Positions 10,007 to 14,228 of a stretch of 64,000 nt of DNA are shown piece after piece. Within the stretch, counting starts at the first letter, position 1, and each line of letters starts with the position of its first letter. Both the position numbers and the translations under genes were made by a program. The notes under the pieces are model-generated. The model had not been told where the DNA came from. It saw only the letters and a list, made by a program, of their open reading frames with translations, and made no database searches. Location of the stretch: positions 320,001 through 384,000 of the forward strand of contig CAWCFX010000001.1 in assembly GCA_963795085.1 (NCBI GenBank). Direction: 5' to 3'. This DNA is from an uncultured Gemmatimonadales bacterium. Its GTDB lineage: Bacteria > Gemmatimonadota > Gemmatimonadetes > Gemmatimonadales > GWC2-71-9.

Positions 10007-11662
10007 GTGTCCAAGATTCTCCCGCTCCGTTACCAGCCAGGCCTCCCTCTCGATCGCCTGATTCTCCGGGAACCGCCCCACTCCGAGGCCATTGAAATGG
10101 ATGTGGTCTTCGTCGGGGCCGGGCCGGCCGGGCTGGCTGGCGCCATCGAACTGGCCCGGCTGGTCAAGCAGGACCAGGATGCGGGCGGCACCCTGGGCGA
10201 GGTCAGCATCGCGCTGCTCGAGAAGGCGGGCAGCCTGGGAGAACACAACCTCTCCGGCGCCGTGGTCAATCCCCGGGCGATGCGCAGTCTCTTCCCCGGC
10301 TTGTCGGACAGCGAGTTTCCCTTCCGGCAGCCGGTGACCGGCGAGTCGGTCCAGATGCTGACCGCCAGCCGGGCGCTGACAATCCCGGTGCCGCCGACGA
10401 TGAAAAACCACGGAAACCACATCGCCAGTATCTGCGAGATCGTCCGCTGGCTGGGTGAGAAGGCAGAGGGCCTCGGCGTCAATATCTTTCCGGGGTTTCC
10501 GGTGGACTCGCTCCTGGTCCAGGAGACCCGGGTCATCGGCGTCCGTACCACGCCGAGCGGTCTGGAGCGAGACGGATCCCGGGGCCCCAACTATGCCGAG
10601 CCCACCGACCTGACGGCGAAGGTCACGGTGCTGGCCGAAGGCACCCGGGGACCGCTGGGCCAGGCCTGGCGGCAGTGGCAGGATATCGGCTCGCCCAATC
10701 CCCAGATGTTCGCGCTCGGCGTCAAGGAGATATGGCAGGTCAAGGCGCCGGTGGACCGCATCATCCATACGCTCGGTTGGCCGCTGCCTCCCGACGCTTT
10801 CGGCGGTAGTTTCCTCTACCCGCTGTCTCCCGAACTCGTAGCCCTGGGGCTGGTCGTCGGCACCGATTATCGCGACGCCAACCTCGATGTTCACGTCCTC
10901 CTCCAGCAGATGAAGCTGCACCCGTTCTTCCGCCCGGTGCTGGAAGGCGGCGAAATGTTGGAGTGGGGCGCCAAGACCATTCCGGAAGGCGGCTACCACT
11001 CGCTCCCCGAGCGGTTAAGCGGGGATGGCCTCGTGATGATCGGCGATACGGTGGGATTCGTAGATGTCCCCTCGCTCAAGGGGATTCACTACGCGATGGA
11101 GTCGGGCATGCTGGCGGCACGGGCCATCTTTGCGGCGCTCAAGGCGGGCAGTGCGAGCGGGGCCTCCCTGGCCGCCTATGACCGGTCCATCCGCGAGAGT
11201 TACATCGTCCAGGACATGAAGAAGACCCGGAACATGCGGCTGGCGTTCAAGTCCGGCTTCGTCGCCGGGGGGGTCAAAGCCGGCCTGATGACGCTCACTG
11301 GAGGCCGGTTGCTGGGCGGCCGGATCACAGCCCCGGAGGATGCGGCAGAAGAGAAAGTGGTGACGCCCGCTCAGCCGTTCGTGCCGGACAACGTGCTGAC
11401 CTACAGCAAGGTGGACGCGGTGTTCAAGTCTGGCAACCAGACCCGCGATTCCATTCCGGCCCATCTGGTGGTGGGAAAGGACGTTGGCGGCGATGTCGCC
11501 GAGTTCTACAGCCACGTGTGTCCGGCCGGAGTGTACGAGCGGGTGGGAGACGAGTTGCGGGTCAACGCTCCCAACTGCGTGGACTGCAAGGCTACCGACG
11601 TCCTGGGCCCGCGCTGGACTCCCCGCGAAGGAGGCAGCGGCCCCAAGTACCGGACCATGTGA
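10007..11662 (+). CDS. Electron transfer flavoprotein-ubiquinone oxidoreductase (ETF-QO/FixC-like)
   Basis: DVVFVGAGPAG, HNLSGA, LGVKEIW, AKTIPEGG, KGIHYAM, CPAGVYE, EGGSGPKY; GTG start approximate. Confidence 0.92.
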   Translation: MSKILPLRYQPGLPLDRLILREPPHSEAIEMDVVFVGAGPAGLAGAIELARLVKQDQDAGGTLGEVSIALLEKAGSLGEHNLSGAVVNPRAMRSLFPGLSDSEFPFRQPVTGESVQMLTASRALTIPVPPTMKNHGNHIASICEIVRWLGEKAEGLGVNIFPGFPVDSLLVQETRVIGVRTTPSGLERDGSRGPNYAEPTDLTAKVTVLAEGTRGPLGQAWRQWQDIGSPNPQMFALGVKEIWQVKAPVDRIIHTLGWPLPPDAFGGSFLYPLSPELVALGLVVGTDYRDANLDVHVLLQQMKLHPFFRPVLEGGEMLEWGAKTIPEGGYHSLPERLSGDGLVMIGDTVGFVDVPSLKGIHYAMESGMLAARAIFAALKAGSASGASLAAYDRSIRESYIVQDMKKTRNMRLAFKSGFVAGGVKAGLMTLTGGRLLGGRITAPEDAAEEKVVTPAQPFVPDNVLTYSKVDAVFKSGNQTRDSIPAHLVVGKDVGGDVAEFYSHVCPAGVYERVGDELRVNAPNCVDCKATDVLGPRWTPREGGSGPKYRTM

Positions 11663-12837
11663 CGGTGCGGCGCCCGAGCGGGTCGTTTCACCTCCACCGG
11701 CTATGGCGGACCCCGGACCCCCTTCTGCTGGATGCCGGCGCCGAAGGGGAAGTGCTGGTGGCCCGGATCCGGCTGTTTATCTGTGCCACCCTGGTCCTTA
11801 TCCCGGTCTTCGGGCTCCGGGGTTCGACCAGCGACGAGACCATGGTCGGGGTCGGGGCCACGCTGGTGGCGCTCATCATCGCGATCGCGGTGTACTTGCT
11901 GGTCAAACAGGATTTCTACCGGCCCTGGCTCGGCATGCTCACCAGCCTGCTCGACGTGACGCTGGTGAGCGCGGCCCTCGCGATGTTTCTCCTTCTCGAG
12001 CAGCCCCACACGTCAGTCAACAGCCGGGTCATCTTCGAGGCCTATTTCCTTGCCATCGGCGCGACCAGCCTGCGCTATGATATCCGGATCTGCCTGGCGG
12101 CCGGGGCCCTGGGCATCGCCCAGTATTTCAGTATTGTCTGGTTCGCCTCGTCGTACTGGGACCTGAACAATCCCCTCTTCGCGCCCTTCCGCTACGGATT
12201 TTTCGACTGGGGGTCCCAACTCTCCCGGCTCATCCTGATGTTCATCGCCGCGGTGCTGAGCGCGGTCGTCGTGCTGCGGGCCCAGCGGCTGCGGCGGCTC
12301 TCGACCAGCGACCGGCTGACCGGGTTGATGAACCGGGGCTATTTCGACGAGCGGATGACGTCAGAGGTGAGCCGAGCCCGGCGCTACGGCCACCCGATGT
12401 CGGTGGCCATGATTGACGTGGACCACTTCAAGCGCTTCAACGACACCATGGGCCATGCCGCCGGGGACGCGGCCCTCCAGGTCCTCGCCGATACCATCAG
12501 GCACTCGCTCCGGCAGAGCGATATTGTGGCCCGCTACGGGGGCGAGGAGTTCGTGGTGATCATGCCGATGACTACCCTGGCCCAGGCGGCCGAGAAGCTG
12601 GACGCCATGCGCCTGGCGGTTGCCAATCTTGTCATCGACGTCCCCAAGCGGGGGGCGCAGGCCCAGCTCACGATCAGTGCCGGCGTGGCCTGTCTTCCCG
12701 AGGACGGCGTTCAGGATGACGACCTCCTGGACATTGCGGATCGCCGGCTCTTCCTGGCTAAACAGGGGGGGCGGAATAAAATCGGCCGGGCAGGGGGGCA
12801 GAACCAGATGCGGGATGGTAGGGCGACAAGGCCTTGA
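11659..12837 (+). CDS. Membrane-bound diguanylate cyclase
   Basis: About six TM segments, then DRLTGLMNR, DVDHFKRFND, RQSD I-site, GGEEF; GTG overlaps the ETF-QO stop. Confidence 0.92.
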   Translation: MTVRRPSGSFHLHRLWRTPDPLLLDAGAEGEVLVARIRLFICATLVLIPVFGLRGSTSDETMVGVGATLVALIIAIAVYLLVKQDFYRPWLGMLTSLLDVTLVSAALAMFLLLEQPHTSVNSRVIFEAYFLAIGATSLRYDIRICLAAGALGIAQYFSIVWFASSYWDLNNPLFAPFRYGFFDWGSQLSRLILMFIAAVLSAVVVLRAQRLRRLSTSDRLTGLMNRGYFDERMTSEVSRARRYGHPMSVAMIDVDHFKRFNDTMGHAAGDAALQVLADTIRHSLRQSDIVARYGGEEFVVIMPMTTLAQAAEKLDAMRLAVANLVIDVPKRGAQAQLTISAGVACLPEDGVQDDDLLDIADRRLFLAKQGGRNKIGRAGGQNQMRDGRATRP

Positions 12838-12961
12838 TTGTAACAGAATCGTAGTATTATTCACATCTTAGCAATGTTTTGCAGTTTGGCAACACCTGTC
12901 GGCATAATGTGTTATGCTGTTCAGTAAGGTTATCAAGATTATTGTGAATAGTTTGTTGATA

Positions 12962-12989
12962 TTGACCGCCCTCCCGATCATCCTATGTT
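12962..12989 (+). promoter_or_regulatory. Sigma70-like promoter
   Basis: TTGACC (12962-12967), 16-bp spacer, TATGTT (12984-12989), after an AT-rich upstream tract. Confidence 0.6.
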
Positions 12990-12995
12990 AGCCCC

Positions 12996-13244
12996 CTGCA
13001 TTCGTGTTGTTTGAGAAGGCCCCTTCGCCAGAGGGTCGTTGTGGTTCGATTCGACCGGTCCACCCCGGTATGGAAAGGGGTGGGCGCCGGTCGGAGCCTT
13101 GTCGGGTTTGGTGAGCAGGCGCACGGCGGAGGATTGGCGGCCCCCACAAATTGACCTTGCGGCACGGCGGTACGTCAGCAGAAGAAAGGCCTCAGCGCCT
13201 TTACCCCAACGGCCCTGCTGACGTACCCCGCGCTGCTTTTTTTA
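12996..13244 (+). ncRNA. Candidate structured small RNA of unknown family
   Basis: Promoter upstream; long hairpins at 13043-13098 and 13159-13236 with G-U pairs favouring the + strand; 3' T run; no convincing protein. Confidence 0.55.
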
Positions 13245-14081
13245 TTCCTGGAAGGTGTTACAACTTTCCGGCCTCCCCGATTCCAGCCCCCGCCGGAGCC
13301 ACTCCACCCGTTGTGAAGAACTTCCGTGGGTCCAGGTTTCGGGGCTGGCGGCGCCACCTCCCATGCGCTGCAGGCGGTCATCTCCAATGGCCGCTGCGGC
13401 ATTCAGACCTTCCTCAACGTCCCCCGGCTCGAGAGTGACCTGTCCCGCAGTCTGGTGGCCCCAGACCCCGGCATAGCAGTCCGCCTGCAGTTCCAGCCGC
13501 ACTGAAAGGTCATTCGCGGCATCGGGCCGCTGCTGTTGAGCGGATCGGACCTGGTCGCTGATCCCGGTCAGTTGCTGGACATGATGGCCGATCTCGTGCG
13601 CGACGACGTAGGCCTGAGCGAAGTCTCCCGGGGCGCCGAACCGTTCATGCAGTTCACCGAAGAAGCCAAGGTCGAGGTAGACCTGCTGGTCCGCGGGGCA
13701 GTAGAACGGCCCCGATGCCGACTGGCCCACCCCGCACGCCGTGGACGTGGCATCCCGGAAGATGACCAGCCGGGCATCCTGGTATCGCTGGCCCGCTGCC
13801 GAAAAGATGCGTGACCAGGTGGCCTGGGCATCGTCCAGCACGTCGGACATGAAGTCCATCTGCAACTCTTCTTCCGGCGTTCCCACATAGGGCGTACCGT
13901 CGGCGGCGGGAGCCACCCCCGGGTCGCCCCCGCCGCCCGCCATCGAGAGGAAATCCTTCCCGAAAACCAGGCTCAGGACCAGGAGGAGGACGGTGCCACC
14001 CACCCCCATCCCCACGCCGCCCATTCGCATGCCCCGGCGGTCTTCAATGTTCGCGCTCCGGCCACCCCGTGTCCATCGCAT
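13242..14081 (-). CDS. Neutral zinc metallopeptidase, YpfJ family
   Basis: MRW...SANIEDRR, GPFYCPAD, GDFAQAYVVAHEIGHHVQ, LELQADCYAG, IGDD, THGSS. Confidence 0.92.
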   Translation of the reverse strand: MRWTRGGRSANIEDRRGMRMGGVGMGVGGTVLLLVLSLVFGKDFLSMAGGGGDPGVAPAADGTPYVGTPEEELQMDFMSDVLDDAQATWSRIFSAAGQRYQDARLVIFRDATSTACGVGQSASGPFYCPADQQVYLDLGFFGELHERFGAPGDFAQAYVVAHEIGHHVQQLTGISDQVRSAQQQRPDAANDLSVRLELQADCYAGVWGHQTAGQVTLEPGDVEEGLNAAAAIGDDRLQRMGGGAASPETWTHGSSSQRVEWLRRGLESGRPESCNTFQE

Positions 14082-14228
14082 AACCACTCCCGGAAGGGTT
14101 TCCCCGAATAAACGCTGGCCGGCTGAACGCCGCTGTGGCAAATGACCCGGAAGCGAGATTCGGATAGCGGATTCCCAAGCGCGGCCTGCAGGTCAGCCAG
14201 AAATCGGGAACTTTCATCTGCAATCGCT

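Follow-up and report, generated by a model that had tools for sequence, protein, structure and literature searches.

A probable new small RNA locus with a conserved 3' hairpin in one genus of Gemmatimonadales

The described systems closest to the locus reported here are stand-alone base-pairing small RNAs (sRNAs), sRNAs derived from the 3' untranslated regions (UTRs) of mRNAs, and plain intrinsic (Rho-independent) terminators. Base-pairing sRNAs usually work with the help of Hfq, ProQ or CsrA, and 3' UTR-derived sRNAs such as CpxQ, SroC, DapZ and MicL are known from enterobacteria. Gemmatimonadota is a common soil phylum; a full-text literature search whose hits were judged by title or abstract turned up no described sRNA for it, and we know of no cultured host of the genus considered here. 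In this study, we analysed a 64,000-nt stretch of the genome of an uncultured Gemmatimonadales bacterium (hereafter the window), in which an earlier sequence-only reading had picked out a candidate structured RNA. Every element that this reading named is present at the coordinates given below, and the locus is real as described; we conclude that it is probably a new small RNA. With stand-alone base-pairing sRNAs it shares what looks like a sigma-70-type promoter of its own, an intrinsic terminator, a predicted length of ~250 nt, an intergenic position, the lack of a conserved open reading frame (ORF) and a short conserved unpaired strand set within a conserved structure.

Structure and conservation of the locus

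The candidate RNA lies in an intergenic gap of 404 nt, flanked on one side by a GGDEF-domain gene (11518-12837, + strand; PF00990, E 3e-47) and on the other by a putative zinc metallopeptidase gene that converges on it (Zn_peptidase; 13242-14141, - strand; PF04228, E 2.3e-101). Sequence and covariance-model searches found one full copy of the locus in its own genome. The predicted transcript is ~248 nt long (12996-13243, + strand), with a 5' end reckoned from the -10 element and a 3' end placed at a T run. The sequence-only reading had noted a convergent next gene and had argued that the element is not a riboswitch leader. The orientation of the peptidase gene upholds the first point, and the second stands as well, since the RNA ends at a terminator and has no downstream gene on the same strand. 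The same reading had seen no hallmark motifs of tRNA, SRP, tmRNA, RNase P or 6S RNA and had suggested a search of Rfam. Rfam 15, which includes tmRNA, SRP, RNase P, 6S and the c-di-GMP riboswitches, gave no match at the gathering score across the whole 64-kb window; at E <= 10, the interval 12700-13500 yielded just two chance matches (E 2.2 and 2.8), each to a eukaryotic lncRNA model that lacks structure, and ARAGORN found no tRNA or tmRNA in the 64-kb window.

The most conserved part of the locus is a 3' hairpin, hairpin B, whose core occupies 13159-13236 on the + strand. An outer stem of 9-10 bp (GCGGCACGG/CCGCGCTGC, 13159-67/13228-36, with one A.C mismatch) is followed by a bulged C and a perfect 13-bp inner stem (GGTACGTCAGCAG/CTGCTGACGTACC, 13169-81/13215-27). 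The inner stem encloses an asymmetric internal loop that carries a sub-hairpin, AAAGGC/GCCTTT (13185-13202, + strand; paired 13185-90/13197-202), with a hypervariable top, and a 12-nt unpaired strand, ACCCCAACGGCC (13203-13214, + strand), which is a candidate recognition site or seed. Directly 3' of the stem lies a run of seven T residues (13237-13243, + strand). Thus, the stems, sub-hairpin, exposed C-rich strand and T run described by the sequence-only reading are all found at 13159-13243. Folded alone, hairpin B reaches -46.5 kcal/mol (z -7.15), a value attained by 0 of 200 shuffles, and its - strand also folds well (z -6.30). Together with the T run it forms an intrinsic terminator, with a GC-rich stem that passes directly into a U run on the transcribed strand. 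A simple terminator scan did not call it, because the loop rule of that scan admits only 3-8 nt.

We compared hairpin B among six related sequences, namely the window, L003, L004, L005, L006 and L021 (five genomes and one metagenome contig). A T run of 4-8 residues directly follows the hairpin in all six, and it adjoins the stem on the + strand only. In the window this run shares positions with the stop codon of the peptidase gene (13242-13244). The overlap of the two transcript ends is peculiar to the window, since 60-130 nt and a separate hairpin separate hairpin B from the peptidase gene in five of five relatives. Over 81-82 alignment columns, the window is 79-86% identical to its five relatives. 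The adjacent peptidase gene is saturated at four-fold degenerate sites, where the window and four relatives are 30-49% identical, and the peptidase proteins of the same pairs are 61-66% identical. Such identity beside saturated synonymous sites points to hairpin B as the selected part of the locus. Only 1 of the 12 positions of ACCCCAACGGCC varies (C to A in two of the six sequences), and the sub-hairpin shows compensatory changes along with indels of 1-2 nt.

The pattern of substitution follows the predicted pairing. The six sequences together give 185 pair cells, of which 97.3% are paired, and double compensatory changes, one on each side, are seen at 5 of the 31 pairs. Neither the pairing nor the covariation score was reached by any of 500 shuffles, sliding the partners by 1-3 columns lowered the paired share to 33-49%, and the test was likewise positive with the first five sequences alone. 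These are six sequences that are all kin, so the covariation statistics overstate the case and are best taken as indicative rather than as proof. The strand can be read from the 21 G-U cells: pairing holds in 180 of 185 cells on the + strand and in 161 of 185 on the - strand, as the sequence-only reading had anticipated when it held that G-U pairs favour the + strand. The conservation and covariation that it had proposed looking for were both found for hairpin B. These data indicate, short of proof, that hairpin B is a + strand RNA element under purifying selection.

Parts of the region upstream of the transcript are also conserved. A predicted sigma-70-type promoter, TTGACC-N16-TATGTT, lies at 12962-12989 on the + strand (TTGACC, 12962-12967; TATGTT, 12984-12989), with the hexamers and spacer that the sequence-only reading had named, and has 9 of 12 consensus matches in a promoter scan. 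Shuffled sequence gives an expectation of 0.1 promoter-like sites in 12600-13500; the scan returned two, of which this is the + strand one. As read from the sequences, the TTG of the -35 element and A2 and T6 of the -10 element are kept in all six, with spacers of 16-17 nt. Upstream, an AT-rich region (12838-12961, + strand) has a GC content of 0.36-0.44 against 0.67 for the genome, and these values hold for the first 150 nt of the gap. The 3' part of this region is a genus-conserved block ...TGTGAATAGTTTGTTGATA (~12940-12961, + strand) that ends in TTGATATTG, abuts and overlaps the -35 element and is conserved in six of six sequences, with GATATTG invariant. We found no other copies of the promoter block in the genome. 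The AT-rich block could be a binding site for a regulator; a resemblance to a Fur box or a CRP-type site, which we take as a candidate only, was considered. A second promoter-like site, TTGCCA-N16-TAAGAT with a TG before the -10 (12865-12892, - strand), faces away from the sRNA and runs antisense into the end of the GGDEF gene.

The 5' part of the predicted transcript evolves quite differently. It begins with a small hairpin, P1 (13018-13037, + strand), whose loop carries the motif CTTCGCCAGAG (YTTYGCCAGAG). This motif is conserved in the three genomes with a short form of the locus (the window, L003 and L006) on stems that differ, and the fold energy of P1 in the window is not significant (z -1.12). 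Hairpin A (13043-13098, + strand) follows and is the stack of three helices that the sequence-only reading had described: GGTTC/GAGCC (13043-47/13094-98), CGACCGG/CCGGTCG (13052-58/13087-93) and CCACCCC/GGGGTGG (13060-66/13077-83). Folded alone it reaches -34.9 kcal/mol (z -3.78), and 1 of 200 shuffles did as well. At the same position, a GC-rich hairpin of 11-12 bp, capped by a GGAA or GAAA loop but different in sequence, is present in L003 and L006, so hairpin A appears to be kept as a hairpin, not as a sequence, and only in the three short-form genomes, a comparison that rests on three sequences that are all kin. A variable linker (13099-13158, + strand), poorly alignable among these three, leads into hairpin B. 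The whole 251-nt stretch folds weakly better than shuffled sequence on the + strand (z -1.93; 6 of 200 shuffles) and scores better on the - strand (z -3.42; 0 of 200), and thus energy alone cannot give the strand. We suggest that P1, hairpin A and the linker would form an accessory domain; across the whole genus, only hairpin B and the promoter appear to be conserved.

Distribution and two forms of the locus

Hairpin B and its synteny are confined to one genus among the genomes searched. A BLAST search of 41 related genomes matched all four other members of the genus, in hairpin B only, at 82-90% identity. It also returned a 45-nt match in one other genus (L007), which is a plain terminator-like hairpin that we judged a chance match, and partial matches L002 and L008, which lie inside coding sequence and were judged likewise. 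An exact-pattern scan of species-representative genomes found four Gemmatimonadota/Gemmatimonadales MAG contigs; a fifth match, inside coding sequence of an unrelated MAG, was attributed to chance. The same kind of scan over metagenomes added one contig, L021. A covariance model of hairpin B run against 151 genomes of the family recovered the genus members and two further hairpins only (27.6-29.9 bits), which we rejected as heptamer-repeat hairpins with no internal loop. Of 81 genomes of the family, 30 contain the peptidase gene. We searched 27 of the 28 loci from other genera with filters off (L051 was left out) and found no counterpart of hairpin B behind the gene: the best match, at 26.5 bits, had the internal part deleted, and these loci have plain hairpins behind the peptidase gene. 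Neither a GGDEF gene nor a lipoprotein gene of the kind described below lies within the ~1.5-kb flank of any of the 28 loci.

The heptamer-repeat hairpins are an observation in their own right. Long palindromic hairpins built of tandem heptamer-like repeats occur in relatives of the window. The GTAACAA/GTGACAA type is found just 3' of hairpin B in L004 (~1390-1495, - strand) and at both ends of L021, and a GGCGGCA type occurs in two other genera (L017, 1501-1585; L018, 1490-1589). The CTTGTCA-type repeat has no match in the window. In these Gemmatimonadota, they may form a family of terminators made of repeat hairpins or may be small mobile elements.

Within the genus, the locus takes two forms. 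In the short form (the window, L003 and L006), 170-250 nt separate the promoter from hairpin B. In L004, L005 and L021, an ORF for a lipoprotein-like protein of 329-332 aa lies between the same promoter block and hairpin B (L004, 1587-2576; L005, 1592-2590; L021, 1676-2668; all on the - strand), and its stop codon falls 4-12 nt before the hairpin B stem. The ORF product has no Pfam match, and its Atlas matches, which we treat as a lead, are only to clusters named 'Lipoprotein' at 0.78-0.80. A paralogue of ~43% identity and 436 codons is found in the genome of the window (C1:583679-584830), and paralogues ~43% identical also occur elsewhere in the genomes of the relatives. The family has a conserved CSYGHEHGRDPHG stretch, which might be a metal-binding site. 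No trace of the ORF was detected in the short forms (best tblastn E 0.34). The 5' regions of the short and long forms show no significant likeness, with 75 to 493 of 500 shuffles scoring as high; MAFFT lines up a CCYC...GAGG-type hairpin 30-40 nt after the -10 in both forms, but in view of the shuffles we rejected homology of these regions.

The order in which the two forms arose was examined with a tree of the peptidase, a single gene, in which the genus members were set against ten outgroup rows from other genera. The window is sister to all other members of the genus (support 100/97), L003 pairs with L006 (94/88), and the three loci with the ORF make up a derived clade (100/99); monophyly of the genus has a support of only 85/72. 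Forcing the three short forms into one group, which was chosen after the tree had been seen, lowers the log-likelihood by 15 units (p-AU 0.032). On this rooting, with the window sister to the rest and the ORF loci derived, the tree suggests that the short non-coding form is ancestral and that the ORF replaced the 5' domain once. In that one derived lineage, the lipoprotein ORF would have taken the place of the 5' part, and the promoter and hairpin B would have become the promoter and 3' UTR of an mRNA. Such a replacement singles out the promoter and hairpin B as what selection maintains, irrespective of the sequence that separates them.

Expression, function and competing explanations

Public sequencing data provide a hint, albeit a weak one, that hairpin B is transcribed. 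A search of sequencing runs returned 15 runs, each with a small share (0.05) of the sampled words; 13 of them, from 11 studies, are recorded as RNA. In all four soil or rhizosphere RNA libraries examined, from four studies, assembled contigs cover hairpin B. They are 83-230 nt long with a depth of 2-5.5, span 13158/13159-13242/13244 and do not give strand, ends or level; these are low-depth assemblies, and DNA may be present in the libraries. All listed differences between the contigs and the window fall in 13186-13200, at the top of the sub-hairpin. Run X12 has two contigs that stop at 13243, and contigs of X1 and X4 extend beyond the T run into peptidase-like sequence. No contig covered the 5' domain (12996-13158) at 80% likeness, which is uninformative because that domain diverges fast.

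How the RNA might act was considered from its sequence. The sequence-only reading had proposed a stand-alone regulatory RNA whose C-rich loop pairs with G-rich ribosome-binding sites. The structure on the + strand, the apparent promoter and terminator of its own and the absence of a leader arrangement are in keeping with the first half of this proposal, but the pairing model found no support. Of the exact complements of ACCCCAACGGCC in its own genome (11-13 nt), nine sites were inspected in a check that was crude, made with neither gene calls nor an energy model across genomes. None lies beside an evident gene start, and all nine fall in stretches with a long ORF that are apparently coding. 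Moreover, as read from the sequence, CCCC is not the complement of a GGAGG-type ribosome-binding site. Within the 5' domain of the window, a stretch at 13034-13044 is complementary to the 12-nt strand at 10 of 11 positions; we rejected it as an intramolecular partner: 33 of 200 shuffles do equally well, and the complement is absent in the relatives. Searches of its own genome, which is 93% complete, gave no match to Hfq (PF17209), ProQ (PF04352), CsrA (PF02599) or the RNase III domain family PF14622, which does not prove that any of them is absent. If the lack of the usual helpers is true of the group, RNA regulation there would rely on other helpers.

On balance, we lean towards reading 12962-13243 (+ strand) as an independent non-coding transcription unit, found in a single genus of soil Gemmatimonadota, whose working part is the 3' hairpin. 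The features of a stand-alone sRNA that can be seen are a promoter-like site in six of six sequences and a terminator, with ends that are predicted. A sigma-70-type promoter would drive a ~248-nt RNA that ends at the intrinsic terminator, and hairpin B would hold ACCCCAACGGCC open in its asymmetric internal loop beside the hypervariable sub-hairpin. This strand may then be the working site of the RNA, where it pairs with another RNA or a protein docks, and the long stem and U tail would give it a defined and stable 3' end. The main rival gives hairpin B a role in cis alone, at the 3' end. As a terminator of elaborate build, a stabiliser of the RNA or an insulator, it would keep transcription that arrives from the GGDEF side from running into the convergent peptidase gene, and the short RNA would be a by-product without a role. 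This we regard as rather unlikely, although several observations suit it: the T run follows hairpin B in all six sequences, the hairpin lies between convergent genes at all six loci, it is plainly the 3' end of an mRNA in three relatives, no other terminator-like hairpin is seen in the window between the GGDEF stop and hairpin B, and no trans target emerged from the nine complement sites inspected. However, a stem and a U run suffice for a terminator, which has no need of a near-invariant unpaired 12-nt strand amid saturated synonymous sites. The promoter upstream is conserved even in genomes that have no ORF for it to express, and in other genera the hairpins that follow this peptidase gene are plain ones (27 of 28 loci searched; best 26.5 bits).

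It is improbable that the locus is instead a decayed gene, that is, the leftover promoter, 5' UTR and terminator of a lost lipoprotein ORF with no present function. An ORF of 329-332 aa does lie exactly between promoter and hairpin B in three relatives, and a CCYC...GAGG-type hairpin can be read from the alignment 30-40 nt after the -10 in both forms; yet the rooted tree would require two losses of the ORF that yielded the same 5' domain, no remnant of the ORF was detected by tblastn, the 5' regions of the two forms are not significantly alike, and a dead remnant would not hold 79-86% identity where four-fold sites have fallen to 30-49%. An ancestral non-coding form, if the tree is correct, likewise argues against decay. 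We give very little credence to an element that acts as DNA (a protein-binding inverted repeat, a recombination site or the end of a mobile element) or as an RNA of the - strand, located within the 3' UTR of the peptidase mRNA. The perfect 13-bp inverted repeat, the good folds of the - strand (z -6.30 for hairpin B and z -3.42 for the region) and the overlap of the T run with the peptidase stop codon would fit such an element, but 21 of 185 cells are G-U pairs that become A.C on the other strand and would be meaningless in duplex DNA, the hairpin is single-copy and syntenic rather than repeated, and the overlap is seen in the window only, a separate hairpin preceding the peptidase in five of five relatives. 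Finally, translation of the TTG-start 60-aa ORF (13039-13221), as a small-protein gene or as part of the dual-function RNA that the sequence-only reading had kept as an option, seems extremely unlikely. The ORF exists and has AGAGGG 4-9 nt upstream of its TTG, and the frame ending ...LPQRPC* is open in L003 too. The ORF runs into hairpin B, though, where relatives carry indels of 1-2 nt, within the conserved sub-hairpin, that shift the frame; the frame in which the conserved motifs (CTTCGCCAGAG and the hairpin B stem) are read changes from genome to genome, and L006 lacks a stop at the position where the ORF ends. At 67% GC, long open frames should arise by chance, and neither 60-aa ORF has a Pfam match. 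The ORF thus lacks in-frame conservation among the relatives and appears to carry no coding signal.

Comparison with known RNA systems

The preferred reading, an independent non-coding RNA that works through its 3' hairpin, makes the locus a compact and testable candidate, one whose promoter, terminator and structure are defined and which offers a putative recognition strand. Its reach is limited to one genus and to a candidate RNA that has no assigned function. The relatives amount to a natural experiment, in that the same 3' module joins either a non-coding 5' domain or an mRNA, and the two forms bear on the exchange of parts between sRNA genes and the 3' ends of mRNAs. A bolder version, which we offer tentatively and consider possible but doubtful, is that hairpin B serves as a portable RNA module for 3' ends and does the work of what would be the first family of riboregulators from Gemmatimonadota. 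In this version, an ancestral stand-alone sRNA would act via ACCCCAACGGCC, displayed within its own terminator stem, in a genome that gave no match to Hfq, ProQ or CsrA; in one lineage, a duplicated lipoprotein gene would later have replaced its 5' domain and captured the rest as promoter and 3' UTR. The apparent capture of the promoter and 3' end of an sRNA gene by a protein-coding gene would be unusual, as would a recognition strand placed inside a terminator stem, if that is the role of the strand.

Compared with plain intrinsic terminators, hairpin B has the GC-rich stem and the T run in common in all six sequences, but its stem is ~23 bp long, its interior is branched and spans ~33-35 nt, it contains a nearly invariant 12-nt strand, and its sequence is conserved far above the neutral level. 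Stand-alone base-pairing sRNAs differ from this locus in the placement of the conserved strand, which here lies in the internal loop of the terminator hairpin and not 5' of it; the locus also belongs to no Rfam family, is restricted to one genus and comes with no Hfq, ProQ, CsrA or target found. The likeness to 3' UTR-derived sRNAs is closest in L004, L005 and L021, where hairpin B forms the last 80-90 nt of an mRNA and provides the terminator common to both, and where, as in that class, it is far better conserved than a mere terminator would be. In contrast, the window has no parent ORF between promoter and hairpin B, and hairpin B is not the 3' end of an mRNA there. The peptidase tree further suggests that the direction of change was from sRNA to mRNA 3' end; if so, an mRNA acquired its promoter and 3' UTR from an sRNA gene, whereas the usual course is for sRNAs to arise from 3' UTRs.
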